The notes below the pieces were generated by a model that saw nothing but the letters and a program-made list of their open reading frames with translations, did not search any database and was not told where the DNA came from. The translations under genes were made by a program, and so were the position numbers. This document shows, in pieces, positions 97 to 16,836 of a DNA stretch of 64,000 nucleotides. Origin of the DNA: Vicinamibacterales bacterium (GTDB lineage: Bacteria > Acidobacteriota > Vicinamibacteria > Vicinamibacterales > UBA8438); the NCBI GenBank assembly GCA_965203565.1, contig OZ241896.1:41707-105706 (forward strand), written 5' to 3'. Every line of letters starts with the position of its first letter. Position 1 is the stretch's first letter.

Positions 97-1182
97 ATGG
101 CACTCACGCACTATCTCACGCTCGGCGATTCGGGCCTGCGCGTCAGCCCGTTCTGCCTCGGCGCCATGACGTTCGGCGAAGACTGGGGGTGGGGCTCCTC
201 CGTGGCCGATTCGGAGGCGATCCTGGCGCGGTACTTCGACCTCGGCGGCAACTTCGTCGACACGGCGAACGCGTACACCAAGGGGCACTCCGAAGCGATC
301 ATCGGCGACTACCTGCGCAAGGGCGGCCCCGGGCGCGACCGGGCGGTGATTGCGACGAAGTTCTTCGCGAACCTCTTTCCGGGCGATCCGAACGGGGGCG
401 GCGCCGGCCGGAAGTCGCTGACGGCGGCTTGCGACGAGTCGCTGCGGCGGCTCCGGACCGACTACATCGACCTGTACTGGATGCATCTGTGGGATCGGTT
501 CACGCCGATCGACGAGACGATGCGCGCGCTCGACGACCTCGTCCGCGCCGGCAAGGTCCGCTACGTCGGGTTCTCCGACACCCCGGCCTGGAAGACGACG
601 CAGGCGCAGGTGACGGCGCGCTTCCGGGGATGGACGCCGCTGGCGGCGATCCAGATCGAGTACTCGCTGATCGAGCGCACGGTCGAGGGGGAGCTGATGC
701 CGATGGCGCAGGAGCTCGGGCTGGGCGTCGCGCCCTGGTCGCCGCTGCGCGGCGGCGTCCTGACCGGCAAGTACACCCGCGAGAACGCGAAGACCGCCAG
801 TCCCGGGCGCGGGCAGCGGGTGACGGAGCACCTGAACGAACGGACGTTCGTCATCGTCGACGAGCTGGTCCGGATCGGCCGGGAGCTCGACGCGGCGCCG
901 GCGGCGGTGGCGCTCGCCTGGGTGCAGGCGCAGCCGGGCGTGACGTCGACCATCATCGGCGCCCGCACCCTGGAGCAGCTCGATCAGAACCTCGCCGGCC
1001 TCGACGTCACGCTCGCGCCGGACCACCTGCGGGCGCTCGACGAGGTGTCCCGGCCGGCGCTCGGTTTCCCGATGGCGTTCCTGCACGCGGCCCCGATGAT
1101 CATGCACTCGGGGGCGACCGTCGACGGCGCGCCGTCGGAGGTCTGGCCGCTGGCGCCGGCGAGCGACGGCGAGCGGTACTGA
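97..1182 (+). CDS. aldo/keto reductase family oxidoreductase
   Basis: 361-aa ORF. N-terminal LGDSGLRVSPFCLGAMTFG and internal IDLYWMH and YVGFSDTPAW motifs are typical of the AKR family. The overlapping 634-aa ORF is Arg/Gly-rich shadow. Confidence 0.85.
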   Translation: MALTHYLTLGDSGLRVSPFCLGAMTFGEDWGWGSSVADSEAILARYFDLGGNFVDTANAYTKGHSEAIIGDYLRKGGPGRDRAVIATKFFANLFPGDPNGGGAGRKSLTAACDESLRRLRTDYIDLYWMHLWDRFTPIDETMRALDDLVRAGKVRYVGFSDTPAWKTTQAQVTARFRGWTPLAAIQIEYSLIERTVEGELMPMAQELGLGVAPWSPLRGGVLTGKYTRENAKTASPGRGQRVTEHLNERTFVIVDELVRIGRELDAAPAAVALAWVQAQPGVTSTIIGARTLEQLDQNLAGLDVTLAPDHLRALDEVSRPALGFPMAFLHAAPMIMHSGATVDGAPSEVWPLAPASDGERY

Positions 1183-1194
1183 CGGAGGAGACCG

Positions 1195-2193
1195 ATGACA
1201 GCAGCCTGGATTCGCCGCGTCGCCGCCGGCGTCGCTGGCGCCGGAGTCGTCGCCGCCGCCGCGTGCGGCGCGGGCTCGTTCATGCAGCCGGAGGACCGGC
1301 AACCGGTCTCGGTCGAGCAGTTCGAGACGTGGATGGAGGAGCTGTCGAACTGGGGGCGGTGGGGCGACGACGACGAGCTGGGCGCCGCCAACCTGATGAC
1401 CGACGCCCGGCGGCGGGAGGCGGCGGCGGCCGTGCGGCACGGGACGACGGTGTCGCTGGCCCACGACTTCATCACCGAGGAGGCGGAGGACGCCCGCGAG
1501 CCGTACGAGCTTCAGATGCGGATCAACCCCGAAGGGCAGAACTCGGGCGACCGGATCGAGGTGTACTTCCACGGCGTCACCTTCTCGCACCTCGACGGGC
1601 TGTGCCACGTCTTCTACGAGGACAGGCTGTACAACGGCCACGACTACCGGGACGTGGTGACCGAGGACGGCTGCTTGCGGATGGACGTCACGGCGCTCAA
1701 GGACGGCCTGGTGACGCGCGGCGTCCTGTTCGACATGCCCCGGCTGAAAGGCGTGCCTTACCTGGAGCCGGGGACGAAGTTGTACCCGGAGGACATCGAG
1801 GCGTGGGAGGAGCAGGCGGGCGTCCGACTCGGCCCCGGCGACGCGCTGCTGCTCCGCACCGGCCGCTGGGCGCGCCGCGCGGCGACGGGGCCCACGCGCG
1901 CGATGTCCGGGTGGGACGCCTCGGTGATGCCGCTGATGGCTGAACGGGACGTCGCGCTGCTCGGCGCCGACTCGGTGCACGAAGCGCCCGACAGCGTGCC
2001 GGGCCTCGGCTTCAACCCGATCCACCGGTTCGCCATCGTCGCGCGCGGGATGAACCTGCTCGACAACCTCGACCTCGAAGCGGCGGCCGAGACCGCCGCC
2101 CGGTTGAACCAGTGGGATTTCATGCTGGTGATCGCGCCGCTGCGGGTGCCGGGGGGCACCGGCTCGCCGGTCAATCCGCTCGCCATCTTCTGA
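1195..2193 (+). CDS. cyclase-family (kynurenine formamidase-like) secreted protein
   Basis: 332-aa ORF starting 12 nt after the AKR stop. N-terminus is signal/lipobox-like (VVAAAACGAGS). HGVTFSHLDGLCH resembles the HxGTHxDxPxH motif of the cyclase family. Confidence 0.6.
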   Translation: MTAAWIRRVAAGVAGAGVVAAAACGAGSFMQPEDRQPVSVEQFETWMEELSNWGRWGDDDELGAANLMTDARRREAAAAVRHGTTVSLAHDFITEEAEDAREPYELQMRINPEGQNSGDRIEVYFHGVTFSHLDGLCHVFYEDRLYNGHDYRDVVTEDGCLRMDVTALKDGLVTRGVLFDMPRLKGVPYLEPGTKLYPEDIEAWEEQAGVRLGPGDALLLRTGRWARRAATGPTRAMSGWDASVMPLMAERDVALLGADSVHEAPDSVPGLGFNPIHRFAIVARGMNLLDNLDLEAAAETAARLNQWDFMLVIAPLRVPGGTGSPVNPLAIF

Positions 2194-2210
2194 CCGCCGA
2201 CCGCCCGGCG

Positions 2211-2684
2211 TCAGCGGCCGGCCGCGCAGGCGCCGTAGTACTGCTCCGGCCGCGACGTGAACCCGACGAGCGACACGTCGGTGTACTCGTGCCGGGTGTG
2301 GACCGCCATCAGCTTCCCGTCGGCGGTCTCGCGGCCGAAGACGGTGGTGGCGTACAGCGGGCCGGCGTTGAACGTCTGCAGGAAGTGCAGATAGTCGCCG
2401 GTCAGCCGGCTGACGACGTGCGACGGCCCGAACGGGCCGATCACGTCCGCCGTCGCTTCGTGCGCGTCGATCGACTCGAACCGCAGCGACAGCGTCGACG
2501 CCTCCAGCGCCGCCTCGGGCGCATCGGCGGTCCAGGTTCCGGCCGCCTTCAGCGTGAAGGCGCAGTCGAGGCTGCGGACGGCGGCCAACGCGATCTCCTG
2601 CGCGCCGCCGGGCCGGGCCGCCGGGCCGGCCGCGAGCGACCAGCCGAGCGCCGCAACCGCCGCCATCCGTCGGGTCGTCTCCAT
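2211..2684 (-). CDS. hypothetical secreted protein
   Basis: ORF 2211..2738. The internal ATG at 2682-2684 (METTRRMAAVAALGWSLAAG) gives a signal-peptide-like N-terminus. No family recognised. Confidence 0.45.
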   Translation of the reverse strand: METTRRMAAVAALGWSLAAGPAARPGGAQEIALAAVRSLDCAFTLKAAGTWTADAPEAALEASTLSLRFESIDAHEATADVIGPFGPSHVVSRLTGDYLHFLQTFNAGPLYATTVFGRETADGKLMAVHTRHEYTDVSLVGFTSRPEQYYGACAAGR

Positions 2685-2770
2685 TCCCGGTATTCTACCG
2701 GCGCGGTCTGACGGCCCGGGCAGGACTGTTGACCGCATGAACGGCGCGCCGCATAATCGGCGTTCCGGCC

Positions 2771-3316
2771 ATGAAGGTTCCCACTGCCCGCGGCAAGATT
2801 TCCGCTGCAGGCGCCCTCGCGCTGGCCGCGGCCGCAGGAATGGCGGCGGCGCAGGCGCCCGGCGCCGATCGGTTGCCGGATCAGCTCGCCCGCCTGTTCC
2901 CGTCCGCGACGGCGTTCTCGCCGAAGGAAGGCGACCCGCCGCACTTCAAGGCGTACGCGGAGAAGGACGGAGGACGGCGGGCGCTGCTCGGCTACGCCTT
3001 CTGGACCACCGAGCTCGAACCGCTCGAGCGCGGGTACGACGGGCCGATCAAGATCCTGACGGGGATCGATACGGACGGCGTGCTGACCGGCGTCGTCGTC
3101 GTCGACCATCACGAACCGTACGGGTACTTCTCCATCGACCTACCGCAGTACGCGGCGCAGTTCGTGCGGAAGAGCATCCGCGATCCGTTCCGGGTCGGCG
3201 GCGACGTCGACGCCGTCTCGACCGCCACGTTGACGGTGACGAGCGCGACGCGGGCGGTGCGGAACGGTTCGCGCCGGATAGCCCGGCGGTTCATCACGCC
3301 GCCGGAGTCGCGGTGA
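2771..3316 (+). CDS. periplasmic FMN-binding domain protein (NosR/RnfG/NqrC-like)
   Basis: 181-aa ORF with a signal peptide (ALALAAAAGMAAAQA). The C-terminal GGDVDAVSTATLTVTS resembles the flavinylation region of FMN_bind domains. Confidence 0.65.
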   Translation: MKVPTARGKISAAGALALAAAAGMAAAQAPGADRLPDQLARLFPSATAFSPKEGDPPHFKAYAEKDGGRRALLGYAFWTTELEPLERGYDGPIKILTGIDTDGVLTGVVVVDHHEPYGYFSIDLPQYAAQFVRKSIRDPFRVGGDVDAVSTATLTVTSATRAVRNGSRRIARRFITPPESR

Positions 3317-4344
3317 TGCGGCGCGTCGGGCGGGCGTTCGCGCTGCCGGCCGCGTTCGTCGCCGCCGCCGCCTGCGCCGCAGACGGCGCCCACGCCGGCC
3401 TTGCCGCCCAGTCCGCCCAGCCCGAATCAACCGCTCGACCCGAGCCTGGCATCCAACCCGAACCGGCCGCCGACCTGTGGCGGTTCGACGACGAGGTCGA
3501 AGAGGCCGAAACCTGGGCGGCGCTCCTGCGGGATCAGGCCGCGGACCTCACGCTGTTCGCCGGCTTCGCGGCCCTGACGCTGATCGGCTTCTTCCGCAAG
3601 AGCGTCGCGCTGAAGTACGTCACGCTCGCGGCGGCGGTCGCCTGGCTCGGATTCGCCAAGAGCCAGCTGATTTCGGTGGTCAACCTCCATGGAGTGATGA
3701 CCGGCAACCTGCCGGTCTTCCGGTACAACCTTGCCTGGTATCTGTTCGCCGGCTTCACCGTCGTGACGACGGTGCTGTGGGGCCGGCTGTACTGCGGCCG
3801 GGTCTGCGCGTTCGGCGCGCTGACGCAACTGATGGACCGGGTCGTGCCGGCGCGGCTGCGCGTGGAGGTCCCCCCGCGGCTGGAGCGGCGCGCGGCGCTG
3901 GTGAAGTACGGCCTGCTCGCCGCGGTCCTCCTGTACTTCCTCGCGACGTCGGACGTCGGCGCCTACCGGTACGTCGAGCCGTTCTGGATGTTCACGCGCA
4001 GGGCGTCGGCCGGGATGTGGGCGGGGCTGGCCGTGCTGCTCGTCGCCACCGTCTTCGTCCGGAACCTGTACTGCCGCTTCCTCTGCCCGGTCGGCGCCGC
4101 GCTGGGACTGCTGTCGAAGCTGACGGTGTTCCGTATCCGGCGCTGGCCGGAGTGCGGCGCCTGCCGGATCTGCGAGAAGACGTGCGAATGGGGCGCTATT
4201 CGCGGGCCGCGCATCGTCGAGACCGAATGCGTGCGGTGCGACGACTGCGAGCGGCTCTACGCGGACCGGGCCAAGTGCCCGCACTGGCTGATCCTCGCCC
4301 GGCGGGCGCGCGCGTCCCGCGCCGCATCGCAGCAGCCCGCGTAG
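3316..4344 (+). CDS. polytopic 4Fe-4S-binding membrane protein (NapH/MauN/NosR C-terminal-like)
   Basis: The ATG at 3316 overlaps the upstream stop (TGATG). It has several TM helices, membrane Cys motifs LYCGRVCAFG and LYCRFLCPVG, and C-terminal ferredoxin-type CGACRICEKTC and CVRCDDCERLY. Confidence 0.7.
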   Translation: MRRVGRAFALPAAFVAAAACAADGAHAGLAAQSAQPESTARPEPGIQPEPAADLWRFDDEVEEAETWAALLRDQAADLTLFAGFAALTLIGFFRKSVALKYVTLAAAVAWLGFAKSQLISVVNLHGVMTGNLPVFRYNLAWYLFAGFTVVTTVLWGRLYCGRVCAFGALTQLMDRVVPARLRVEVPPRLERRAALVKYGLLAAVLLYFLATSDVGAYRYVEPFWMFTRRASAGMWAGLAVLLVATVFVRNLYCRFLCPVGAALGLLSKLTVFRIRRWPECGACRICEKTCEWGAIRGPRIVETECVRCDDCERLYADRAKCPHWLILARRARASRAASQQPA

Positions 4345-4346
4345 CG

Positions 4347-5480
4347 CTACTGCGACATCCCCGCGAACAGGAACCGCTGCATCCGTTCGTTGCGCTGGGC
4401 CTCCGCGGTGTACAGGTTCCCCCGGCTGTCCACCGCGATGTGGTGCAGCGCGTCGAAGTCGCCCGGCGCGGTCCCGAGCTCGCCCCACGTGTCGAGCACT
4501 TCGAGCGTCCGCCGGTCGAGGACGTGGACGTGCAGGTTCGCCTGGTCGGCGACGTACAGGTACTGCTGCTCCGGGTCGGGAGAGAACGCCAGCCCCGCCG
4601 CGGTCAGCGACCGCCCTTCGAACTGGTTGACGAAGACCTGACGCTGGTAGTCGCCCTCGAGGTCGAAGATCTGGATCCGGCTGTTGTTCCGGTCGGCCAC
4701 GTAGACCAGCCCGTCGTTCGACACTTCGATGCCGTGCACCGTGCCGAACCAGGGCGGCCCGTCCGGCGCGTCCGGCTCGGCCTCCGGCTCCGTGTCGCTC
4801 GGCTCCTTGCCGAAGGCGGCCCACATCCGCTTGAACTCTCCGGTGTCGGCGTCGAACACGATGACGCGCCGGTTGCCGTAGCCGTCCGCCACGAACACCT
4901 CGTTCGTCGGCTCGTAGACGAACATCTCGGCCGACCTCCGCACGCTCTCGGTGTCGAGGTTCCCGCCGTTCACGTCACGCCCGCCGATCTGGAGCAGGAA
5001 CTCGCCGGTGTTCGTGAACTTCAGCAGCATGTCGTCCCGCACCTCGGAGGGCGGGGTGCGGCCGGTCGGGTTGTTCCCCCCGATCCAGACGTGGCCGTTG
5101 TGGTCGACGAACAGGCCGTGCTCGTTCCACGGCCAGTCGAACCCCTCGCCCGGACCGCCCCAGGCGTTGACGAACGCGCCCGCGGCGTCGAACTCGATCA
5201 CCGGCGGCGCCGCGTTGTCCCGCTCCGCCTCCGGCGCGGTGAGCGGCCGGTGCAGCACCCAGACGTGGTCGCGCCGGTCGACCGACACGGACGACACCTC
5301 CCCGGTGATCCAGCCGTTCGGAAGCTGGGGCCAGTCCGGGTCGAGCTCGAACGTCGGGAAGCTCGCACCGGCGGCCTCCGGCGCCGCCTCGGGCGCGGCC
5401 TCCTCCGCGGGCGGCGCGCCGCCGCAGGCCGCCATCGAGAGCGCAAGCGCAGACGCGCCGATCGTCACCGTCCAGTGCAT
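4347..5480 (-). CDS. NHL-repeat beta-propeller lipoprotein
   Basis: The ATG at 5478-5480 gives lipobox ALALSMAAC. It carries repeated NHL-like blades (VYVADRNNSRIQIFD, LYVADQANLHVHVLD, LYTAEAQRNERMQRF). The upstream part of the 474-aa ORF looks non-coding. Confidence 0.65.
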   Translation of the reverse strand: MHWTVTIGASALALSMAACGGAPPAEEAAPEAAPEAAGASFPTFELDPDWPQLPNGWITGEVSSVSVDRRDHVWVLHRPLTAPEAERDNAAPPVIEFDAAGAFVNAWGGPGEGFDWPWNEHGLFVDHNGHVWIGGNNPTGRTPPSEVRDDMLLKFTNTGEFLLQIGGRDVNGGNLDTESVRRSAEMFVYEPTNEVFVADGYGNRRVIVFDADTGEFKRMWAAFGKEPSDTEPEAEPDAPDGPPWFGTVHGIEVSNDGLVYVADRNNSRIQIFDLEGDYQRQVFVNQFEGRSLTAAGLAFSPDPEQQYLYVADQANLHVHVLDRRTLEVLDTWGELGTAPGDFDALHHIAVDSRGNLYTAEAQRNERMQRFLFAGMSQ

Positions 5481-5610
5481 GTCCGTTCCTCCTTGCACCG
5501 CGCAGCATACCACCTGCGCGCCGCAAGCCGCCCGGCAGGGTTGACGCATGCCGCCGCCGCACAAGCGGTAAAGGCGCAATGGACGCGGTTCGACAATGTA
5601 AGATGCCGCC

Positions 5611-8367
5611 GTGACCTTCAAGCGGCGCATCGACCCGCATTGGCATCGGGAGGTCCCCGGGGCGCGGTGGTTCAAGGCGGACCTGCACGTCCACACGATG
5701 GATGACATCCCGGGCGGCAGAGTCGGAATGCCGCCGGGAATTGACGGGCCGCCCGCTTCGGAAGAAGTCATTTCAGCCTACGCGCGGAGCTTCCTGCAGG
5801 GCGCGGTCGAGCGGCAGGTGCAGGTGATCGGCGTTACGCCGCATTCGCCCCGCGTGGCCGACAGCGCCGAGTCGAGCGCGGTCTGGCGAATCGTCGAAGA
5901 ATGGAGCCGCGGCGCGGACGACGACGGGAAGCCGTTCCGCGAGAAGATATACGCGGTTTTTCCCGGTTTCGAGCCGTGTCTGAAGAACGGCAGGAGCGGG
6001 CTCCACCTGCTGTTTCTTTTCGATCCGGAAATAGGACGGGACCTTTATCTCAAGGCGTTCGACCTCGTCATGGGAGGCGCGGCGCCGTGGCGGGAGAACC
6101 GACTCGCGATGTCCGGAAGGGACGCCGAGCAGGTTTTCGGCGAGCTCCGAACCCTGCAGGGCGGCCAGTCCGCCAGGAACCCGCACGACTCGACGCGGTG
6201 GAGCTATCTGACGCTGGCGCCGCATATCGAAAGCGACAAGGGGCTTCTGGGAGCGCAAAAGGCGCAAGTGCTGGAGCGATTTCAGCACGGGGAAATCGCC
6301 GGTCTCGAACTCGGCGACGACAAGACGCCTCAAGACGCGTTGAAGGCGCGGCCGTGGCTGCTGGAGGGCATGCGCAAGCACCGCCAGGCGTTCTTTCACG
6401 GCAGCGACGCCTGTTCGCCGGGCGACATCGGCAGGCGCCATACGTGGCTGAAGCTCGCGAGCCCCCGGATAGAAGCGCTGCGTCAGGCATTCATCGCCAG
6501 CGATTCGCGGATGCGCATCGGCTACGAGCGGAACGCCGCCGGAGGACTCGCCGAAATTGCGGCTCCCGACGTCACGGTGAACGAACGGCCGTGGTTGAAG
6601 TCCGTTGCAGTCAAGGGGCGCGCGTCGTTCTTCGGCGGCGCAGACGCCGGCAGCCGTTTCGAACTGAGCCCGGACCTCACCTGCATCATCGGCGGCAGCA
6701 TGACGGGCAAGAGCACGTTCCTGGACGGCTTGCGCGTGCACGCCGGCGCTCCGTTGCCCCAGGACGCCGGAATCAGGAAGCAGGTTGAAGCGCGCGGGCG
6801 GGATCGATTTCTCGGCGGTTCGCCGACGATCACGCTGGAGTGTCCCGGCCGCGATCCGACCGCGCCGACAGGGAAGCGATGGCCGGCCGTATTTCACGCC
6901 CAGAACGAGTTGCAGCGCCTCGCGCAGGAGCCCGAGGCCGTCGAGGAAGTGCTGGCCCGGCTGGTGGCGTCGGAGACGTCGGGCATCGAAGCGCGCGACC
7001 GGCGGTTGGGCGCTCTGGACCGGGAGCTTGGAGACGCGGTCAGGAGATTGGCGAAGCTCGACGAGGACGTGGCCGACGCCGAGCAAGCCTTCGAGCGCAG
7101 CAAGAGCGCCGCCAAGGCGCTGGATACGTTTTCGGACGCCGGCGTCGAAGACGTTCATCGGGCGTCCCGCGACCTGCGCGATTGGGAGAATGCGGCGCAG
7201 GCCGCCGAAGATCTGATGGCGAGCTTGCAGCGCGCACTGCAGACCGCCCAGGCGCTCGACGTCCCGGAGATCGGCCCTGACGTGGCGCGTGCGCTGCAAA
7301 CCGCGCTCGTGGAGGAATCGCAAGATGCGTTCGCCGCGCGCTGGAAGCGGCTCCGCGCGCACGTGAGCGCCGCCGCGGAAGAACTGACGGGCGCCATGGC
7401 GGTCATGAAGTCGGCCGCGGCCGCCCTGGCGGAGCGCGACCGGGCGGTGCGCACCGACGTGGACCGCGAGCTTGCCGCTCGCGGCGTGGACGGCGCGGCG
7501 ATCAGGGAGTTTCAGGTTCTGAGTCGTCAGGCTGCGCTTCTGAAGAGCTACGAGGCCAATCTGACGGAGGTGCGCGGCAAGCTCGCCGCCGCCGAGCGCT
7601 CGTTCGAGAAACAGCTCGACGAGCGGCGGAGCCTCGTCGGCCGGCAGCGAGCCGCCTTCGACCGCATTGCAGATGCGATCCGCACCCAGTTCGGCGGGCG
7701 GATTTCGGCCCGTCGGATCGACGACGGCGACCGGGCGCCTCTCGACAGATTTCTCAGAGGCCTGAACCAGCGCGGCATCACCCGCTGGTGGAACGATCTG
7801 GCGGACCGGAAGCGGCCGTCGGCGCAGGAGCTGCTTGACAAGTTCAACGCGGGCAAGCTGGCGAGCGTCGGGATGAGCGACGCCGTCCGGGCGACGTTTC
7901 GCGGATGTCTTGACCGACTGAAGCAGCGGGAGCTGGCGGCCGTTCGGTGTCGCGACAGATATTTCCTGGAACTCGAAACGGACGCCGGCGGACGCCGGCT
8001 GGACGACCTCTCCGGCGGCCAGCGGGTGAGCGTGCTGCTCTCGCTGCTGCTGGAGACGAACGACGAACGCCCCCTGGTGATCGATCAACCGGAGGACGAG
8101 CTGGACAATCGATTCCTTTTCGACACCGTCCTGCCGGCGCTGAAACGGCTCAAGGGACGCCGCCAGATCATCGTGGCCACGCACGACGCCAACATGGTGG
8201 TCAACGGCGACGCGGATCAGGTCATTCAACTGGAAGCGACTGCGGACCGCGGGCGCGTCGCGCAGGCGGGGGCCATCGAGGAGCCCGCCGTGCGGGATGC
8301 GATCGTTCGCACCGTCGACGGCGGCGACGACGCATTCCGGCTGCGCAGGCTGAAGTACGGATTCTGA
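5611..8367 (+). CDS. PHP-domain phosphoesterase fused to SMC/ABC-like ATPase (PplA-like architecture)
   Basis: 918-aa ORF with a GTG start. The N-terminal PHP motif is FKADLHVHT...IGVTPHS. Walker A IIGGSMTGKSTF sits mid-protein, followed by a long Ala/Glu/Arg-rich coiled-coil-like region. The C-terminus has the ABC signature LSGGQRVSV and Walker B PLVIDQPEDELD, then VATHDANMVVNGDAD. Confidence 0.8.
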   Translation: MTFKRRIDPHWHREVPGARWFKADLHVHTMDDIPGGRVGMPPGIDGPPASEEVISAYARSFLQGAVERQVQVIGVTPHSPRVADSAESSAVWRIVEEWSRGADDDGKPFREKIYAVFPGFEPCLKNGRSGLHLLFLFDPEIGRDLYLKAFDLVMGGAAPWRENRLAMSGRDAEQVFGELRTLQGGQSARNPHDSTRWSYLTLAPHIESDKGLLGAQKAQVLERFQHGEIAGLELGDDKTPQDALKARPWLLEGMRKHRQAFFHGSDACSPGDIGRRHTWLKLASPRIEALRQAFIASDSRMRIGYERNAAGGLAEIAAPDVTVNERPWLKSVAVKGRASFFGGADAGSRFELSPDLTCIIGGSMTGKSTFLDGLRVHAGAPLPQDAGIRKQVEARGRDRFLGGSPTITLECPGRDPTAPTGKRWPAVFHAQNELQRLAQEPEAVEEVLARLVASETSGIEARDRRLGALDRELGDAVRRLAKLDEDVADAEQAFERSKSAAKALDTFSDAGVEDVHRASRDLRDWENAAQAAEDLMASLQRALQTAQALDVPEIGPDVARALQTALVEESQDAFAARWKRLRAHVSAAAEELTGAMAVMKSAAAALAERDRAVRTDVDRELAARGVDGAAIREFQVLSRQAALLKSYEANLTEVRGKLAAAERSFEKQLDERRSLVGRQRAAFDRIADAIRTQFGGRISARRIDDGDRAPLDRFLRGLNQRGITRWWNDLADRKRPSAQELLDKFNAGKLASVGMSDAVRATFRGCLDRLKQRELAAVRCRDRYFLELETDAGGRRLDDLSGGQRVSVLLSLLLETNDERPLVIDQPEDELDNRFLFDTVLPALKRLKGRRQIIVATHDANMVVNGDADQVIQLEATADRGRVAQAGAIEEPAVRDAIVRTVDGGDDAFRLRRLKYGF

Positions 8368-8384
8368 ATTCCTGAAGCTCGAAC

Positions 8385-9587
8385 ATGGAGTGGCTCGACG
8401 TCCTGCGGCGCATCGAAGCGGGCGAAGGACGGCGTACGGAGTTCAAGCGCGCACTCGGCAACCTGTCGGCTGTCGGCAAGGCGATCTGCGCCTTCGCCAA
8501 CGGCGAGGGCGGCGTCGTCGTGCTCGGGGTCTCGGACCGCGGGGACATCGTCGGCGTCAACGAAAACGTCGATGCCGTTCAGGAACGCCTTGCTTCGTTC
8601 CTCCAGACGGGGTGCAGTGCGCCGGTGTCGGCCCGTACGGGACGCCACGAAGACCCGAACGGCTGGGTGCACTGGGTGGAGATTCCACGCCAACGCGGAT
8701 TCGAGCCGATGCGCCATGGCGGCCGCGTCTGGATCCGCCGCGAGCGCAGCAGCGTCGAGCCTTCGCCGACGGAGTTGCAGGAACTCTACAATGCGTTCGG
8801 CTACGTCCTGACCGAGGAACGCGCCATTCAGGACGCCGTTGCGGCGCACATCGACCTCGCCGCCTTTCGCGCCTACCTGCATCGCTTCGGGTTCGATACG
8901 GAGCAGGAGCCGCAACCTGACAGCGAGGACGACCTTCGCAACCGGAGCGTGCTGGCGGACCTCGGCGGCGCGTTGCGGGCGACGCTCTACGGCGCGATGG
9001 CGTTCGGCAAAGACCCGCAGCGCTATCCGCAGACCCGGAATTTCCGCATCGAGTGCGTCGCATACGCCGGCGGCGACCGGGCGTCGGACGTGCTGCAGGT
9101 CGCCGACGCCGCCGGCCGGCTGAATGAACAGGTCGAACGGGCCAGCGGCTGGTTCCTGGGCTTGGGCCGTCTGGAGTCGTACGGGCATCTGATTCGCGAC
9201 GACCGCTACCTGCTGCCGCGCGCCGCGGTGCGCGAGGCGCTGGTCAATGCCGTGACGCATCGCGACTACGCCCTCACCGGGTCGAAAGTGTTCCTGGAGG
9301 CGTTCGCCGATCGCGTGGACGTGACGAGTCCCGGCGCCCTGCCGAATCAGATGACCGTCGAACGGGTTCGCGCAGGCGCCAATCCGCGGGCGAGAAACGA
9401 CTCCATGGGGCACTTCATGGCGGCGATGGGACTCATGGAGCAGCGCGGCCGAGGCTGGTTGATCATGCGCCGGGAAATGCGCGCGTTCAACGGCACGGAG
9501 CCGGAGCTCGTCCACGCCGAACAGGACCGGTTCGTCAAGGTGACGTTTCGTCTCGATGACCATGCGCCGGCCGCGCCCGCTCAGTAG
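8385..9587 (+). CDS. AlbA_2 (Schlafen-like) domain plus HATPase_c_4-like ATP-binding protein
   Basis: 400-aa ORF starting 18 nt after the PHP-ATPase stop. The N-terminal TEFKRALGNLSAVGKAICAFANGEGGVVVLGVSDRGDIVGV is the AlbA_2/Schlafen core. The C-terminal NAVTHRDYALTGSKVFLEAFADRVDVTSPGALP...RNDSM...EQRGRG matches the RecG-C-like HATPase_c_4 module. Confidence 0.75.
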   Translation: MEWLDVLRRIEAGEGRRTEFKRALGNLSAVGKAICAFANGEGGVVVLGVSDRGDIVGVNENVDAVQERLASFLQTGCSAPVSARTGRHEDPNGWVHWVEIPRQRGFEPMRHGGRVWIRRERSSVEPSPTELQELYNAFGYVLTEERAIQDAVAAHIDLAAFRAYLHRFGFDTEQEPQPDSEDDLRNRSVLADLGGALRATLYGAMAFGKDPQRYPQTRNFRIECVAYAGGDRASDVLQVADAAGRLNEQVERASGWFLGLGRLESYGHLIRDDRYLLPRAAVREALVNAVTHRDYALTGSKVFLEAFADRVDVTSPGALPNQMTVERVRAGANPRARNDSMGHFMAAMGLMEQRGRGWLIMRREMRAFNGTEPELVHAEQDRFVKVTFRLDDHAPAAPAQ

Positions 9588-9870
9588 TACTGCCGGACGT
9601 AGCCGTAGGCCCGGTCGAAGAGCCCCGTACAGGGACGCCCGACCGCTGAAATCGCCGTCCTTCGACACGATGGTGAAGCCGTGTCGCTGTGCGAAAGTAC
9701 AGATGGCAACGGCCCACTTCAGGTCAACCGGCCGAAGCCCCGTCAACCGTCGTTCGTGTCTGGCCGACGGGCTGTCCTCGAAGGCGCCTTCGCATCGGCG
9801 ACGTTGACCCGGTCACGTTCCGATGCCAGGATCAGCAACACGCCCTCGCCAACGGACGCCGCCGCGCCCT
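9581..9870 (-). pseudogene. possible PIN-like (DUF5615-type) toxin gene remnant, frameshifted
   Basis: Minus-strand pieces in different frames read GVLLILASERDRVNVADA / EGAFEDSPSARHERRLTGLRPVDLKWAVAICTFAQRHGFTIVSKDGDF / GLFDRAYGYVRQYY-stop. The ...A..HGF.IVSKDGDF segment looks like the C-terminal acidic motif of PIN-like toxins. At least two frameshifts are needed. Confidence 0.25.
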
Positions 9871-10004
9871 GGGTCGTTCGGTTGCGCGTCGTGTGCGCGC
9901 CAAGTTGATCCGTCGGGCCATGATTCAGTCGTTCGCCGATGACACCGCCGCCGATCATCGCCAGAGACCCCGGTTGGCCGGGACCCGCCATCTCGCCCGG
10001 AGAG

Positions 10005-10787
10005 ATGCTGCTGACGGTGAACCGCCGTCTGGACGCCATCGAGCGCGAAGAGGGCGTGCGGGTGCTGTTCGCCTGCGAGTCCGGCAGCCGCGCCTGGGGG
10101 TTCGCCTCGCCCGACAGCGACTACGACGTACGGTTCGTCTACGCGCATCCGCGCGACTGGTACCTCTCCATCGGCGACCAGCGCGACGTGATCGAGCGCC
10201 CGATCGTGGATCTGTACGACGTCAACGGCTGGGACCTGCGGAAGGCGCTGCGGCTCTTCAGGAAATCGAATCCGCCGATGCTCGAATGGCTCGGCTCGCC
10301 GATCGTCTACCGCGAGCGCACGGCCGCCGCCGCCAACCTGCGCCGGATCGCCGCGCGCAGCTTTTCGCCGCGCGCCTGCGCGTTCCATTACCTGCACATG
10401 GCGAGAGGCAACTACCGCGAGCACCTGCGGGCCGATGCCGTGCCCCTCAAGAAATACCTGTACGTCCTGCGCCCGCTGCTGGCCGTCCGGTGGATCGAGC
10501 GGAATCCGGGAATCGTTCCGACCGAGTTCCATCGCCTGGTCGACGCGATGGTCGACGACCCGCGACTCCGCGCGGCGATAGACGGCCTGCTCGAAAAGAA
10601 GCGGCGCACCCCGGAACTCGCCCGCGGCCCGCGAATCGAAGCGATCGGCGCGTTCATCGAAGCGGAGCTCGCCCGGCACGAGTCCGGCTTCGCTATCGAC
10701 GCCGCGCCGCCGCCCGCGCTGGAGGAACTGGACGCGCTGTTCCGGACCGCGCTGCAGGAAGCGTGGTCCGCGGCCCCCGGACCCTGA
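10005..10787 (+). CDS. nucleotidyltransferase domain protein (RlaP/COG3541-like)
   Basis: The ORF opens at 9939, and the ATG at 10005 (MLLTVNRRLDAIE) is a likely start. CESGSRAWGFASPDSDYDVRFVY is the hG[GS]...D.D minimal NTase motif. The tail is a helical WDLRKAL...PPMLEWL region. Confidence 0.7.
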   Translation: MLLTVNRRLDAIEREEGVRVLFACESGSRAWGFASPDSDYDVRFVYAHPRDWYLSIGDQRDVIERPIVDLYDVNGWDLRKALRLFRKSNPPMLEWLGSPIVYRERTAAAANLRRIAARSFSPRACAFHYLHMARGNYREHLRADAVPLKKYLYVLRPLLAVRWIERNPGIVPTEFHRLVDAMVDDPRLRAAIDGLLEKKRRTPELARGPRIEAIGAFIEAELARHESGFAIDAAPPPALEELDALFRTALQEAWSAAPGP

Positions 10788-10905: not shown

Positions 10906-12306
10906 ATGCACGAGCCTCCGCTGCTGCGACTCCAACGTATCGAGGTCGACGGCCTCTTCGGTATCTACGACCACCGTATCGACCTCAACCTCCGTGATCG
11001 GGTCACGCTCCTGCATGGCCCGAACGGCGTCGGGAAGACCTCCGTGCTGCGTATGGTCGATGCCCTGCTGCGAAACGACTTCGCCTGTTTCAAGCGCATA
11101 CCGCTCACGCGCTTTCTTCTGGGTTTCGAGGACGGCAGCACTCTGGAACTGCAGGCGTCCCGCGGCCCCGAAAACCACGAGGGATCAGGTGCAGGCGAAC
11201 TGAAGTTGACGAGGGCGGACGGCACTTCCAACACCGACCCAGTGGACCTCCGCCCGTCCGAAGCGGCATCCATCGCCGCCCGAATCGAGTACCTCCAACC
11301 CCATCACCACCGCCGGGACGCCTGGATTGACGTGCGCGACGGCGAGGTGCTCTCCGAGCTCGACGTGCTTTCGCGGTTCGGCAACAATCGCGGCGAAGCA
11401 AGGCCCAGGCTCGGCTCCTTTTCCTTGTTCGATCATCCTCAGCTTTCCGGACCCGTGGACAGCTCGTCGAGCGGAAAATCACCGTGGCTCGACGCATTTC
11501 TGAAGAACACGAACGCCTTCCTGATCGAGGCGCAACGACTCGTGCGGACCGAATCGAGCATCCGGCCGAAAACCGGACTCTCGCGCGGTTCCTTCGCTTT
11601 CGTTTCCAGTGTCCTCGAGTGCAGCCTGGACTTTCAGCGACGTCTCGGCGACACGATGGCGGCGTATGGACGACACGCGCAGACCCTGGACCAGTCGTTT
11701 CCGCAGCGTCTGATTTCGCCGACGAACGAACTCGCTCCCGACGAACTCCGGGAACGCATGACGGCGCTCGACGAAAAGACGGACGAGCTTCGGGCGCTCG
11801 GCATCCTCCCAGCCATGTCTCAGGCCGAGCAGCCGGACGAGACACCCAATCGTCCTTTCGACGCCGCCAGCCTGGACAAAATGGATTCCACGCAGGCCCG
11901 GGTCATGACGCTCTACGTCGAGGACACCGAGCACAAACTCCGGGCCCTGGAGGATCTGGCGAACCGGCTCCATCTTCTTCTGAACAGCGTGAACGGAAAG
12001 TTCCGGAACAAGCGTGTGCGCCTCGACAGAGAAGAAAAGAGCCTTGTGGCGGAAGACCTGGGCCGCCACCAGCTACCGCTGGACTCGCTCTCGTCCGGCG
12101 AACAGCACGAGCTCGTGCTGCACTACGATCTTCTGTTCCGAGCTGCGCCCAACACCGTCGTCCTGCTCGATGAGCCGGAGCTCTCCCTGCACGTCGGATG
12201 GCAGAAGAAGTTTCTGTCCGATCTGACGGCCATCGTCGAACTGTCCGGTCTGGACGCCGTGGTCGCCACGCACTCGCCTTTCATCGTCGGCGATCGGACG
12301 ACCTGA
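10906..12306 (+). CDS. AAA_15/21-type ABC-like ATPase (AriA-like, PARIS-type)
   Basis: 466-aa ORF. Walker A is LLHGPNGVGKTS. The C-terminus has LSSGEQHELVLHYDLLF, Walker B VVLLDEPELSLH and ATHSPFIV. It is immediately followed by a DUF4435-like gene. Confidence 0.75.
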   Translation: MHEPPLLRLQRIEVDGLFGIYDHRIDLNLRDRVTLLHGPNGVGKTSVLRMVDALLRNDFACFKRIPLTRFLLGFEDGSTLELQASRGPENHEGSGAGELKLTRADGTSNTDPVDLRPSEAASIAARIEYLQPHHHRRDAWIDVRDGEVLSELDVLSRFGNNRGEARPRLGSFSLFDHPQLSGPVDSSSSGKSPWLDAFLKNTNAFLIEAQRLVRTESSIRPKTGLSRGSFAFVSSVLECSLDFQRRLGDTMAAYGRHAQTLDQSFPQRLISPTNELAPDELRERMTALDEKTDELRALGILPAMSQAEQPDETPNRPFDAASLDKMDSTQARVMTLYVEDTEHKLRALEDLANRLHLLLNSVNGKFRNKRVRLDREEKSLVAEDLGRHQLPLDSLSSGEQHELVLHYDLLFRAAPNTVVLLDEPELSLHVGWQKKFLSDLTAIVELSGLDAVVATHSPFIVGDRTT

Positions 12307-12353
12307 TGGTCGGTCTGGGCGACTGACAGCCCGGTTCCCCGGCAGACCCGACG

Positions 12354-13028
12354 ATGCAGGGACACAAGTCTCCCGGCATTCTGGTTGCCGAGATCACGAT
12401 GAGCCGCATGTCCCACGACGGCGCCTTTCTGCTGCTCGAAGGCAAGGACGACATCCGGTTCTGGCGATCGCGGCGCCACTCGAACTGCGAACTCGTCGAC
12501 GGCGAGGGCAAACCGAACGTCGTCGGAGCGATTCGACAGATCGACACGGCGCGGATCAGAGGCGCTCTCGGCATCGTGGACGCGGACTACGAGCTCCCGA
12601 CGAGCCCGCGCACCGAATCCAACAACTTGCTGTACACGGACGCCCACGACCTGGAGTGCCTTCTGTGTCGTTCGTCCGCACTCGACAAGGTGCTTGCCGA
12701 GCACGGCGATGCCGCGAAGATCCAGCGATTCGAGCACGACGCGGGCATCGACGTCCGCACCGCCCTTCTGGAACGGGCGCTGGCCTTCGGACGCCTGCGG
12801 TGGGTGGCCCGCGCCCGACGACCGGCGATTGCGCTGCGCGGAATAGCGGCGCCGCGGTTCGTGGACGAGAAAACGTGGACGGTAGACGGCGAGAAGTTGA
12901 TCCGCGAAACCGTTTCCGACGCCGATGCCCGGGCGGCCATCAAGATGCGCCTCGCGCAGCCCTGCAGGTCGCAGTGCTCACCGCCGCCAGCTTGGCCAAG
13001 CGCTGTTTTCCGGGCGCAGTGCGAGTAG
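12354..13028 (+). CDS. DUF4435/TOPRIM-like protein (AriB-like)
   Basis: 224-aa ORF. FLLLEGKDDIRFW...GIVDADYE is the Toprim-like E...DxD pattern of DUF4435/OLD-type nucleases. The C-terminal ~30 aa look frame-corrupted and overlap the start region of the next gene. Confidence 0.6.
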   Translation: MQGHKSPGILVAEITMSRMSHDGAFLLLEGKDDIRFWRSRRHSNCELVDGEGKPNVVGAIRQIDTARIRGALGIVDADYELPTSPRTESNNLLYTDAHDLECLLCRSSALDKVLAEHGDAAKIQRFEHDAGIDVRTALLERALAFGRLRWVARARRPAIALRGIAAPRFVDEKTWTVDGEKLIRETVSDADARAAIKMRLAQPCRSQCSPPPAWPSAVFRAQCE

Positions 13029-13075: not shown

Positions 13076-14393
13076 ATGGGTCTGACGTTCGGCCAAGCAT
13101 TGTCGCGGGCCGCAGGAAGGCGACGGCTGCTTTCCGGTCACCGTGATCACAGCCGTGAACGCGACGGTACTGCCATCGTCTTTGGCGACGCAAATGCGCC
13201 GGACACGGCATTGCGCGTCACGTTCGACGGCTGGATCGCAGCTACCGGTCCGGCCGAAATGGTGGCTCGGTTGCCGGAACGCAGCAATTGCGTGCTCTCG
13301 GGCATCCTCGCCTCGTCGCTGGCGGTGTCGGAGATCTTCATGTCCTGCATGGGCGTCAGCGTGGCGGCGACCCGACGTCGGATTACACACTCTCTTTGGC
13401 GTCCCGGCGCGGACGTGCTTGATCCAGAAGCGCGGGGCGTGTCGATCGAGTTTCTGCCGAGAGCACTGTGGGTGTTGGGCCTGGGACACCTTGGCAACGC
13501 ATACCTGTGGGCGATCGCCGCCTTGCAACATCCCGATCCTGGCGAGGTCGAGGTGGTCCTGAACGACTTCGATCGGGTGGAGCCCGAAAACGTCGAAACC
13601 GGTCTGCTCTTCACGAACGTCGCACGCGGACAGTTCAAGACGCGGGTGTGCAGCGCATGGCTGGAAAAGCGAGGATTCCGGACGAGGATCGTCGAACGGC
13701 GGTTCGACGAGCATTTTCGCTGTCAAGCCGACGAGCCCCGGCTCGCGCTGTGCGGCTTCGACAACAACGCTGCACGAAGGCATCTGAAGGCGGCGGAGTT
13801 CGATCGCGTGCTCGAAAGCGGTCTCGGCGGGAAGGCCGATAATTTCGACACGCTTGCCGTTCACACCTTTCCGCAGTTCCGGCGCGTGGAGGAGTTATGG
13901 CGGGACGCTTCGCCAGAAGAAATTGCCGCCGACCATGAACACCGGATGCGCGCCGCGCAACAAAGCGCGGCCTATCAGCCCGTGGCGAAAGTCCCCGCTG
14001 CATTCGAGCGGCGATGCATCCCGCCTGACGGCGTTGTTCGTCGGTTGCGTATGCCCAATATGCGCCCTCCTCACGCCTTGTCAGCCGGGCGCCTCACCGC
14101 TCTCGGCGCGACGCGGGGATTCCACCACGGGCTGCTATGCCGGTATCGGGCACGACGAGTGCGGCAGATTCACGCTGGCAGGAAAGTCCATCGCCGTGCC
14201 GTTCGTCGGAACCGCGGCGGCGAGTTTCGTGCTTGCCGAAGCGATTCGACTTTTTCATCGGGGACCCGCGTGCAACGCCGTCAAGTTGCGGATGGCCACA
14301 CCGGCCCGTACACAGGTCGTGTCGGAACGGACGTATGTCGACAGTGATATCGAACGGCTCCTCTATTCACAGGCTCCAAAAGCGCGGTTCTGA
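13076..14393 (+). pseudogene. ThiF/E1-like adenylyltransferase gene interrupted by a MITE-like insertion
   Basis: The N-part (frame of 12656..) contains the Rossmann motif LWVLGLGHLGNAYLWAIAAL and LCGFDNNAARRHL. The C-part (frame of 13854..14393) reads YAGIGHDECGRFTLAGKSIAVPFVGTAAASFVLAEAIRL. Removing 13976-14134 plus one CTAT copy (163 nt) rejoins the frames into a 384-aa ORF. The true start is uncertain (ATG 13076 or GTG 12974). Confidence 0.75.
13976..14134 (+). mobile_element. MITE-like hairpin repeat, copy 1 (159 bp)
   Basis: Begins CAGCCCGTGGCGAAAGTCCCCGC and ends GCGGGGATTCCACCACGGGCTG. Flanked by direct CTAT (13972-13975 and 14135-14138). Confidence 0.85.
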
Positions 14394-14605: not shown

Positions 14606-14983
14606 TCAGAACGCGATACGCTCGATGCGATCCACCCGGTCGAAGTGCGTGTCGTTGCTCAGAACCGGAAGATCGTATTGAAGGGCGAGCGCTGCTATCC
14701 AGGCGTCGTTGGTCGGAATTGGGTTGGCTGACCGTTTCAAATCCAGACGGATGTCAGCGTAGATCCCGGCAGCCGCGTGGGTGACGGCAGCGATCTCCAC
14801 ATCTGGGAGATGGTGGCGGAGCCAGTTTTCATAACGCCGACGGCGGCTGGATTGCCGGATGCCGAAGTAGTACTCGCCGAGGACGATGCAGGGAACGACG
14901 AGACGGTGAGCGGCTCGAAGAGCGGGTTCAACGGCCGGGAGTCCTTCGGCCCATGCCGACAAGGCGTTGGTGTCGAGGATCAT
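14606..14983 (-). CDS. vapC: PIN-domain toxin VapC
   Basis: MILDTNALSAW...LGEYYFG...NDAWIAALALQYDLPVLSNDTHFDRV carries the PIN acidic residues. The start overlaps the antitoxin stop by 4 nt (ATGA). Confidence 0.85.
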   Translation of the reverse strand: MILDTNALSAWAEGLPAVEPALRAAHRLVVPCIVLGEYYFGIRQSSRRRRYENWLRHHLPDVEIAAVTHAAAGIYADIRLDLKRSANPIPTNDAWIAALALQYDLPVLSNDTHFDRVDRIERIAF

Positions 14984-15249
14984 GCGACCTCGTCGGCGGG
15001 CAGCTTCTCGAACTCGTCCTCTATCAAGGCGGCGATGCGACGGTTCTCGTCCCGGAGATCGGCCAGCGCACCGAACCCGGCCATCCAGGGCGGCTCGGCG
15101 TCGCCACCGGATGTCGTGGGCGCGGAAGCGCGGCGCAGTTTTTCGTCGAGTGCTTCGGTGACGAACTGCTTCAGAGTCACGCCGCGGTCGGCGGCCACGG
15201 CCTTCGCCTGCCGGAGCGCGGCGGCGGGCAGATCGAGCGTGGTCTTCAT
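14980..15249 (-). CDS. vapB: VapB-type antitoxin
   Basis: 89-aa ORF MKTTLDLPAAALRQAKAVAADRGVTLKQFVTEAL..., a typical small antitoxin N-terminus, translationally coupled to vapC. Confidence 0.75.
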   Translation of the reverse strand: MKTTLDLPAAALRQAKAVAADRGVTLKQFVTEALDEKLRRASAPTTSGGDAEPPWMAGFGALADLRDENRRIAALIEDEFEKLPADEVA

Positions 15250-15419
15250 GCCGGCATGTTCCCACATCCACGGGGAGCCAGGCAATTTTCCAGGCGCAAC
15301 CGACGCGGCCACGCTTGCAACCCGACCTTCACGCCGAACCCGCGAGCCGGATCGTCTTCGGCGGGCGCGCGGCCACGCTTGCAACCGGGCCCTGTGCCGA
15401 GCCCAGCCCGCGCCGGCCG

Positions 15420-16411: not shown

Positions 16412-16836
16412 GCCAGCGGATTCTTCCACCGCAGGCCGGGGAACCGCGCCATGTCGGCATCGGTCGAGTGGAGCTCCGCCTGGTGCTCGATCGCCAGGGC
16501 CGCCAAGTGCGCGTCAGTGGTCAGGTTGCCCGCCACGCCGACTGCGTCGAGAAGGTCGAACAGGATGTCGGCGTGACGGTCGCCCGGGTGGATGAGGATG
16601 GCCTGCGGCCGGGCAATCCACGAGCGGACGCGGCTGCATGCGCCGCCGACGTCAAGGGGGTTCTGGAGGATCCTCCCATGCGTCGTGACACGAATGAAAC
16701 CGAGGATGGCGTTCCAGGGAAGGCCCACGCTGGTCGTCCCGCTCAACAGCGTTTCCCACCAAGCTCGCGCGGCGTCGTGTCGGCGCGACGTCGCATCGTG
16801 GGCGTAGACCAGCAGGTTGACGTCGGGAACGATCAT
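16408..16836 (-). CDS. vapC: PIN-domain toxin VapC
   Basis: MIVPDVNLLVYAHD...WNAILGFIRVTT...NLTTDAHLAALAIEHQAELHSTDADMARF. The start overlaps the antitoxin stop by 4 nt. Confidence 0.85.
   Translation of the reverse strand: MIVPDVNLLVYAHDATSRRHDAARAWWETLLSGTTSVGLPWNAILGFIRVTTHGRILQNPLDVGGACSRVRSWIARPQAILIHPGDRHADILFDLLDAVGVAGNLTTDAHLAALAIEHQAELHSTDADMARFPGLRWKNPLA

Follow-up and report, generated by a model that had tools for sequence, protein, structure and literature searches.

Two adjacent genes in a 64,000-nt stretch of a Vicinamibacterales genome (contig OZ241896.1, positions 41,707 to 105,706; the whole stretch is called the window below) encode a TrlF-family ATPase with a PHP-like phosphoesterase domain (gene 1) and a stand-alone Schlafen–GHKL protein resembling TrlG (gene 2). 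Sequence comparisons place the pair as a divergent, trlR-less relative of trlF–trlG, an operon type already named in Photorhabdus laumondii, and indicate that they constitute a self-contained cassette with horizontal mobility. The two proteins very probably work together, and we hold, with confidence a little above even, that the pair is one mobile TrlF–TrlG cassette acting, most likely, as an anti-phage module of the abortive-infection style. The operon type is already known, and the NCBI pipeline would label gene 1; what is new is a very divergent trlR-less clade spread across phyla, a pattern of decay in the PHP domain, and evidence that points to TrlFG as a two-component system joining a Ppl-like protein to a Schlafen protein.

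Coupling of the two genes

An alignment of gene 1 homologues retrieved 288 relatives in species-representative genomes, and the best 80 loci (49–75% identity) were used for comparison; gene 2 was sought downstream in these loci by tblastn, motif counts cover 65 pairs, and spacing was determined for 64 complete pairs. A gene 2 homologue lies directly downstream of the gene 1 relative in 73 of the 80 loci, one of which (L004) is cut by the contig end and shows a gene 2 fragment only. The remaining seven comprise a locus cut by its contig end (L020), a decayed copy with a partial match (L074), and five loci without gene 2 among about 78 that are evaluable. In the complete pairs, both genes have the same orientation and are separated by 5–22 nt, with a median of 9. 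Moreover, the pairwise distances of the two proteins correlate with r = 0.78, a value reached by 0 of 999 permutations in a Mantel test.

All-against-all clustering of the flanking open reading frames (ORFs) in the 80 loci found no other conserved gene around the pair, by which a third conserved gene was rejected. The description of the cassette as self-contained and mobile follows from this near-obligate pairing, the co-evolving distances and the lack of anything else conserved nearby. The first-pass annotation, which was made from the sequence alone, had proposed that the two genes might form one module, and the co-occurrence counts agree with it; a lack of conserved co-occurrence, which it had named as a ground for refutation, is decisively contradicted. 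Further, pairing is kept at 22–28% identity; for example, a metagenomic relative of 28% identity has a 400-aa SLFN+HATPase_c_4 gene 11 nt downstream, and about fourteen metagenome loci found through gene 2 have a TrlF-like gene directly upstream.

The best 80 loci span about ten phyla (Acidobacteriota, Latescibacterota, Spirochaetia, Opitutales, Chloroflexota, Acidimicrobiia, Alpha- and Gammaproteobacteria, Longimicrobiales, Rhodothermales and Poribacteria), and many of them come, according to their record titles, from sponge-associated candidate taxa. Their distribution is patchy and incongruent with phylogeny, the flanks vary between loci, and the pair is found on plasmids of the Pseudomonas syringae group, Vibrio and Yersinia. 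Among 2.9 million viral contigs, there were only two weak TrlF-like matches and one weak Schlafen–GHKL match, none of them paired; a phage-borne origin of the pair was rejected on account of this near absence.

Gene 1 and PHP decay among its relatives

Gene 1 matches the NCBIfam family TrlF_fam_ATP (NF045780) from residue 17 to residue 917 (model positions 2–944 of 944) with 355.7 bits against a curated cut-off of 350; at only about 6 bits above the cut-off, it is a peripheral member of this family of AAA-like ATPases. Its motifs are DLHVHT (24–29), Walker A GGSMTGKS (361–368), Q431, LSGGQ (800–804), a combined Walker B and catalytic glutamate stretch LVIDQPEDE (822–830) and H858. The ATPase motifs (Walker A K367, Q431, the signature, D825, E828, D832 and H858) are present in all 65 paired sequences, with the exception of Q804 (61 of 65). 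In Pfam, AAA_21 is matched at residues 702–862 with 37.7 bits (cut-off 27), SMC_N stays below its cut-off (24.9 against 40 bits), and weak AAA_29 and AAA_23 matches lie at residues 339–376. The insert between the two ATPase lobes is spanned by matches to PADLOC JetC and LmuB and to NCBIfam SMC models, and keratin coiled coils were matched by profile search at profile positions 445–532; a zinc hook (CxxC) is not visible in the sequence. The solved chains closest to the C-lobe region in a PDB profile search are Lmo0919 and AriA. More than 120 full-length homologues have identities of 63–96%, and the family is of moderate size, with 238 cluster representatives at E <= 1e-30 among 1.84 billion.

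The first-pass annotation had likened gene 1 to Ppl and considered the pair a possible Ppl variant. Ppl, a single-gene anti-phage protein of E. coli, is reported to be a single-stranded DNA 3'-5' exonuclease that is inhibited by nucleoside triphosphates (NTPs) and activated by 3'-OH ends (PMC12904381). The likeness holds for the architecture, since both have an N-terminal PHP domain fused to an ATPase, and Ppl is the best PADLOC match of gene 1 (109 bits, E = 4e-32, best stretch residues 745–912, the C-terminal ATPase lobe). It does not extend to orthology, which was rejected because the Ppl equivalog model (NCBIfam NF042955) gives 146 bits against a curated cut-off of 1000, with its best stretch confined to residues 761–912, while the TrlF model passed. 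Gene 1 is thus best described as Ppl-like in architecture and not as a Ppl orthologue. Ppl differs further in that it acts alone, whereas the gene 1 family is nearly always paired with a Schlafen–GHKL gene, and in that PHP ligands have been lost in ten paired TrlF loci.

The PHP domain was assigned on the basis of conserved motif residues, a faint PF02811 match in distant relatives and structural matches. In particular, gene 1 shows the PHP motifs HxH, (T)xH, PGxE, HxL, AxH and SDA, which vary little. H26, H28, D32, H78, E121, H132, H205, H263 and D266 are its putative metal ligands. The canonical ligand positions H26, H28, D32, H78, E121, H132, H205 and D266 are invariant among close homologues, and they align with HxH, TDHN, PGxE, HxL, AH and SDxH in very distant TrlF-like proteins. 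The PF02811 match is a precomputed one on relatives of 28–31% identity. An AlphaFold2 model of residues 1–335 has low confidence (predicted local distance difference test, pLDDT, 54), and its best five Foldseek matches in the PDB (template modelling, TM, 0.3–0.5) are all PHP phosphoesterases: 3o0f, 3e0f, 2yb1 and RNase AM (7ug9/9etk). PDB profile searches with the full-length and N-terminal alignments returned ABC ATPases and coiled coils only, and no PHP chain.

The PHP ligands are retained in only 53–58 of the 65 paired sequences, with the losses concentrated in ten loci, mostly from Acidimicrobiia-type metagenome-assembled genomes (MAGs). In these loci, three to six ligands are replaced (for example, E121K, H132D/R, H205D and D266A/G), and the ATPase motifs and the downstream Schlafen–GHKL gene are all intact. 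The loci are L059, L061, L064, L067, L070, L071, L072, L077, L078 and L080, with the gene 1 homologue at about 8001–10750 in most. The solo TrlF loci retain the full ligand set in every case. Because the PHP site decays in paired loci where the ATPase and Schlafen–GHKL motifs are invariant, its chemistry is dispensable when the partner is present. The constrained core is the ATPase together with the Schlafen–GHKL protein, and the decay pattern points to TrlG as the effector and to the TrlF ATPase as its partner or controller.

Gene 2 and the Schlafen–GHKL family

Gene 2 matches Pfam SLFN_AlbA_2 at residues 14–124 with 68.1 bits (gathering score 25.3) and HATPase_c_4 (PF13749) at residues 299–388 with 65 bits (gathering score 26). 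Its family profile matches the PDB entries for SLFN8, 14, 12, 5 and 11, in the catalytic lobe of these eukaryotic Schlafens, and also the C-terminal domain of PDB chain 3lmm (E = 2.8e-13). The best PADLOC match is the N-terminal part of the pAgo model, DUF4435/AriB gave no match in either Pfam or PADLOC, and homologues are listed at 72–96% identity. Overall, the ORF positions and domain architecture that the first-pass annotation gave for both proteins were confirmed, by the motifs of gene 1 and by the two above-threshold domains of gene 2. Of the domains that it had assigned, the ABC-type ATPase (by AAA_21), AlbA_2 and HATPase_c_4 were borne out by Pfam, and the PHP assignment was the part left without a Pfam match.

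The Ex4(E/D)xK motif, which is the active site of prokaryotic Schlafen (pSlfn) tRNases (PMC13056530, 2026 Nature Microbiology), is intact in gene 2 as E14-GRRT-E19-F-K21. Its residues E14, E/D19 and K21, and the GHKL residues E284 and N288, each occur in 65 of 65 sequences. Nucleases with this motif cleave tRNA in phage defence (PMC13056530); tRNA cleavage together with phage protection is reported for RorSlfn5 and EcoSlfn7 (PMC13056530) and for RzAgo (bioRxiv 10.64898/2026.05.29.728809) only. The fusion of SLFN with a PF13749 GHKL domain has been named the "Schlatpase" supradomain, and in the SLFN-pAgo Schlatpase, ATP binding via a Glu and an Asn leads to tetramerisation and an active tRNase, with E314 and N318 of RzAgo binding Mg-ATP (bioRxiv 10.64898/2026.05.29.728809). 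From the shared ExxxN motif, and not from a direct alignment, we infer that E284 and N288 of gene 2 are the equivalents of these two residues.

Like pSlfn–HisKinase proteins (PMC13056530) and Schlatpases, gene 2 combines an SLFN_AlbA_2 domain carrying an invariant Ex4(E/D)xK with a PF13749 domain carrying an invariant E…N. It differs from them as a stand-alone protein of 400 aa without an Argonaute, NACHT, Ig-like or HTH domain, and in having a separate PHP–ABC ATPase gene as its partner, an association that appears in neither Schlafen paper. Within the library searched, no paper links PHP and Schlafen in a phage context, and no defence paper on the TrlF–TrlG pair was found.

Relation to the temperature restriction locus

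The first-pass annotation knew of no described system that couples these two proteins. The pairing is in fact that of trlF–trlG in P. laumondii, also found on plasmid pYR3. Hapeshi et al. (2020; bioRxiv 10.1101/2020.06.02.129163, PMC7554251) studied this temperature restriction locus (TRL), the source of the name TrlF. Its trlR product has 79 aa, trlF carries the annotation histidinol phosphatase, and trlG, misannotated as recG, codes for a protein with AlbA_2 + HATPase_c_4. Some thirty independent Photorhabdus clones growing at 36 °C carried missense, stop or insertion sequence mutations in trlG and none in trlF, although trlF is more than twofold larger than trlG; deletion of the operon led to the same temperature tolerance as mutation of trlG (PMC7554251). 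Since trlF was never mutated in the tolerant clones despite its size, TrlF would not be required for the arrest. A temperature upshift and stationary phase both induce the operon, which adjoins polA in Photorhabdus and whose gene pair is dispensable there and absent from many strains; the same locus occurs on the Yersinia ruckeri plasmid pYR3 and in Vibrio anguillarum (PMC7554251).

The window pair shares with the TRL its two-gene core, in which the gene for a PHP ATPase is directly followed by that for an AlbA_2 + HATPase_c_4 protein, and it is colinear with the Yersinia pair. Gene 1 aligns with the pYR3-type TrlF of Yersinia at 22% identity (E = 8e-31), gene 2 aligns with Yersinia TrlG at 27% identity over residues 1–372 (E = 2e-36), and the Yersinia genes overlap by 22 nt. 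Besides these low identities, the window clade differs in its hosts, which are Acidobacteriota, Chloroflexota, Actinomycetota and other MAGs and not Gammaproteobacteria, and in lacking TrlR. In particular, tblastn with Yersinia TrlR gave no match, neither in the window nor at the 80 related loci, and the 130-nt spacer upstream of gene 1 holds no trlR-like ORF.

Proposed function of the pair

In the explanation that we favour, TrlG would be an RNA-cutting Schlafen effector that halts growth, probably during phage attack; it is cast as the effector because trlG is required for the Photorhabdus arrest and because its homologues are growth-stopping tRNases. The invariant ATPase part of TrlF would sense the trigger for TrlG or control it, and could restrain TrlG until triggered, as AriA does with AriB in PARIS. 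An intact PHP domain may add a Ppl-like DNA exonuclease activity, which would combine sensing and degradation with the control of TrlG. We infer a physical interaction between TrlF and TrlG, the direction of control, and a defence role of the pair.

These elements differ in strength. An anti-phage role of TrlFG is reasonably probable, and the specific model of guarding and release is doubtful. Only tentatively would TrlF–TrlG be described as an unrecognised two-component anti-phage system, in which a Ppl-like ATPase that senses infection, for example through DNA ends or a collapsing NTP pool, licenses or releases a Schlafen–GHKL tRNase, and in which the PHP domain is an accessory arm lost in one subclade. 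Defence-island neighbours are counted in support, namely PARIS-like, toxin–antitoxin and decayed type I restriction–modification (R-M) genes in the window and type III or type II R-M genes elsewhere. A system of similar logic is PARIS, where the gene for an AAA_21-type ABC ATPase likewise precedes that for a nuclease effector arresting growth via tRNA, and AriA is among the solved chains closest to the gene 1 ATPase C-lobe. PARIS differs in its effector, which is the DUF4435/Toprim protein AriB and not a Schlafen–GHKL protein, and TrlF bears its own PHP domain and a long coiled-coil insert.

Several observations weigh against an anti-phage cassette of this kind. The only published TrlF–TrlG phenotype is the temperature-dependent growth arrest, and the Photorhabdus TRL paper (PMC7554251) makes no mention of phage, toxin–antitoxin or abortive infection. 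Moreover, only one DUF262-type Schlafen and one Ig-like-type Schlafen protected E. coli (PMC13056530), which implies by elimination that the histidine-kinase-type Schlafens gave no protection by themselves on the phage panel of that study. The missing trlF mutants of a single selection experiment are the sole basis for the direction of control, and both AlphaFold models are poor (pLDDT 54 and 37). For the PHP domain, the Pfam model has no match on the gene 1 protein at E <= 0.1, and the last canonical His (DxH) is C268 in gene 1 and Tyr in most relatives.

Further, either family occurs without the other: in metagenomes, most distant Schlafen–GHKL genes have no TrlF, and TrlF stands alone on plasmids of E. 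coli, Klebsiella and Raoultella and at five loci of the window clade. Two gene 2 homologues have other neighbours. At L085 (1076–5236), the homologue has 56% identity and stands between the gene for an AIPR (abortive infection) protein upstream and that for an AAA_21 ATPase downstream; at L087 (567–4443), it has 50% identity and comes 34 nt after the gene for an 883-aa HEAT-repeat protein. Strict exclusivity of gene 2 for TrlF was rejected by these two loci. AIPR and HEAT-repeat proteins are possible alternative partners, and the Schlatpase appears to be a module able to change partners, as is likewise argued in the SLFN-pAgo preprint (bioRxiv 10.64898/2026.05.29.728809).

Alternative explanations

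The pair might instead be a housekeeping-type growth regulator that responds to stress or temperature, or a DNA-repair module in which an SbcCD/Rad50-like ATPase-nuclease is joined to a nucleic-acid-binding regulator, with no role against phages; we regard this as improbable. It accords with the one experimental phenotype, with induction on upshift and in stationary phase, and with the position next to polA in Photorhabdus. It also accords with the resemblance to SbcCD/Rad50–Mre11, where an ABC ATPase head split by a coiled coil is likewise combined with a metal-dependent nuclease. However, the nuclease of gene 1 is of the PHP type and fused, not a separate Mre11/calcineurin-like protein, no zinc hook is visible, and TrlFG is patchily distributed and mobile. 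A housekeeping role is further at odds with the patchy, phylogeny-incongruent spread at 50–75% identity over ten phyla, the presence on plasmids and differing flanks, the recurrence of R-M, PARIS-like and toxin–antitoxin genes as neighbours, the dispensability of the pair in Photorhabdus and its absence from many strains, and the proven anti-phage roles of members of both protein families.

Quite improbable is that each gene is a defence system of its own, gene 1 as a Ppl-like nuclease-ATPase and gene 2 as a stand-alone Schlafen–GHKL protein, and that the two adjoin merely because defence genes tend to cluster and to move together. Ppl does work as a single gene, solo TrlF genes exist, Schlafen–GHKL is the commonest pSlfn architecture and mostly occurs without TrlF, and some gene 2 homologues, at 50–56% identity, lie beside other genes. 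The uniform orientation and short spacing of the 64 complete pairs and the correlated distances of their proteins argue otherwise, as does the small number of evaluable loci, five in ten phyla, that lack gene 2. Moreover, an overlap of the two genes is still present at 22–27% identity, no other neighbour is conserved, and the PHP site decays only in paired loci, which is hard to explain for an autonomous TrlF nuclease.

An addiction module in which TrlF is the protein antitoxin of the toxin TrlG, stabilising plasmids or islands rather than sensing phages, would fit the need for TrlG in growth arrest, the failure to recover trlF mutants, the plasmid copies beside recombinases and the abundance of toxin–antitoxin genes in the window island, but it is distinctly improbable because a 918-aa ATPase-nuclease with invariant catalytic motifs far exceeds any simple antitoxin in size, the whole operon can be deleted without harm, and solo TrlF loci exist, including five clade loci without gene 2. 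Addiction and defence are not mutually exclusive, as PARIS has itself been put in toxin–antitoxin terms ("AriA antitoxin" is the depositor's name).

Gene layout and genomic context

The window has about 70% G+C and its mechanical ORF lists are crowded; real genes were picked by their GC content at the third codon position (GC3). Gene 1 and gene 2 have a coding-type GC3 of 0.83–0.84, compared to about 0.48 at the second codon position. Gene 2 starts with an ATG at the 18th base past the stop codon of gene 1. The divergent NHL-repeat lipoprotein gene on the minus strand begins at 5480 with AGGAGG-N-ATG. A search upstream of the pair found no sigma-70 consensus or promoter-like site, and terminator-like sites occur at chance level. 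Rfam and ARAGORN gave no non-coding RNA or tRNA match in the window, and a non-coding RNA or tRNA component of the module was rejected on these empty searches. The AlphaFold2 model of gene 2 (pLDDT 37) was discarded without a fold search. Table 1 lists the features of the pair and its surroundings.

Table 1. Features of the TrlF–TrlG pair and of its surroundings, in window coordinates.
Feature	Position	Strand	Basis or remarks
Upstream intergenic region, 130 nt, between the divergent NHL-repeat lipoprotein gene and gene 1	5481..5610	+	presumed promoter region of the gene pair
Gene 1, TrlF-family PHP–ABC/SMC-like ATPase, 918 aa, GTG start	5611..8367	+	NCBIfam NF045780
PHP-like phosphoesterase domain, residues ~17–300	5659..6510	+	motif conservation, Foldseek
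ABC ATPase N-lobe: Walker A G361–S368, Q-loop Q431	6616..6930	+	invariance, weak AAA_29/AAA_23
Long helical coiled-coil-like insert between ATPase lobes, residues ~441–780	6931..7950	+	profile search, SMC-type matches
ABC ATPase C-lobe: LSGGQ 800–804, Walker B D825, catalytic E828, D-loop D832, H-loop H858	7951..8364	+	AAA_21
Intergenic spacer, 17 nt	8368..8384	+	sequence
Gene 2, TrlG-like stand-alone Schlafen–GHKL ("Schlatpase") protein, 400 aa, ATG start	8385..9587	+	Pfam
Schlafen/AlbA_2 nuclease-type domain, residues 14–124	8424..8756	+	SLFN_AlbA_2, Ex4ExK motif E14…E19-F-K21
GHKL/HATPase_c_4 ATP-binding domain, residues ~276–390	9210..9554	+	N-box E284-x3-N288-A-x2-H-R-D-Y
350-nt stretch before the RlaP gene	9588–9938		without convincing ORF
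RlaP family nucleotidyltransferase gene	9939–10787		PF10127, E = 1.2e-92
PARIS-like pair	10906–13028		ATPase of 466 aa, PADLOC AriA at 4e-22
DUF4435 protein of the PARIS-like pair, 224 aa	12354–13028		PADLOC AriB at 3.6e-15
Two PIN-domain genes, one then ParD/RHH antitoxin gene	14606–17180	−	
Frameshifted hsdM (type I methylase), in two frames	14980–15870; 15653–16339	−	N6_Mtase; HsdM_N
~175-nt element, five copies	13971–14145, 16239–16413, 17553–17727; ~37596–37649; ~54074–54127	+; −; +	sequence repeat
ORF of 1945 aa	17897–23734		351-nt tandem repeats; Calx-beta, PKD and He_PIG domains

The genes that precede the pair in the window are housekeeping genes. Scaffold_1596 of ENA ERZ23495747 (L165) carries the same pair at 96% identity, and its upstream genes match those of the window (aldo-keto reductase, cyclase, FMN_bind, NosR-like and NHL lipoprotein); the contig probably derives from an organism closely related to the source. 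Among named genomes, Vicinamibacterales MAGs are the nearest, at 74–75% identity.

Downstream, an RlaP gene ("RNA repair pathway DNA polymerase beta family") separates gene 2 from the PARIS-like pair, which begins 1.3 kb beyond gene 2 and shows no co-conservation with TrlFG. RlaP and AriA/AriB were rejected as extra members of the module because they are absent from all 80 related loci. The first-pass annotation had placed the pair at the edge of an island with PARIS-like, R-M and toxin–antitoxin genes, and such an island was found, with AriA/AriB-like genes followed by PIN, ParD and frameshifted hsdM genes at 14.6–17.2 kb. The hsdM stretch looks like a decayed type I R-M system. The dispersed element of about 175 nt has a near-identical core of about 165 nt, and three of its copies separate the island's toxin–antitoxin and R-M cassettes; it has no Rfam match and is a candidate for a miniature inverted-repeat transposable element, a repetitive extragenic palindrome-like element or a cassette boundary. 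The 1945-aa ORF marks the end of the island; its GC skew is strongly positive, and it probably encodes a giant surface or adhesion protein made of repeats.

Defence genes also adjoin the pair elsewhere. Seven loci from Latescibacterota, Terriglobia, Dehalococcoidia and Opitutales (L004, L005, L007, L013, L017, L024 and L045; at about 350–7935) have type III R-M genes immediately before trlF–trlG. This R-M pair, Res (ResIII+RE_endonuc, about 1050 aa) and Mod (N6_N4_Mtase, about 950 aa), ends about 70 nt before the cassette, and the arrangement suggests a four-gene island that recurs. In another locus, an MjaI-type (type II) R-M system comes directly after the pair, and AAA_21 ATPases lie near the pair in several loci. 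On enterobacterial plasmids, small serine recombinase genes adjoin TrlF genes (L081, 10467–11087; L083, 1000–1620 and 7848–8444); small serine recombinases have been used as defence-system markers (PMC13552941, 2026 PLoS Biology).

Implications

The Schlafen–GHKL class is the commonest among bacterial Schlafens, making up 34–59% of prokaryotic Schlafens (PMC13056530; bioRxiv 10.64898/2026.05.29.728809), and its stand-alone members have no known trigger or partner. TrlF would be the first candidate sensor for them, as a partner conserved from Gammaproteobacteria to Acidobacteria and Chloroflexota. The pair would also join two defence families that have been studied separately, Ppl and Schlafen. 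Further, if TrlF–TrlG is indeed a two-component anti-phage system, growth of Photorhabdus laumondii at 36–37 °C would fail through auto-activation of an immune tRNase, and the pair would offer a testable molecular explanation of temperature restriction in Photorhabdus.

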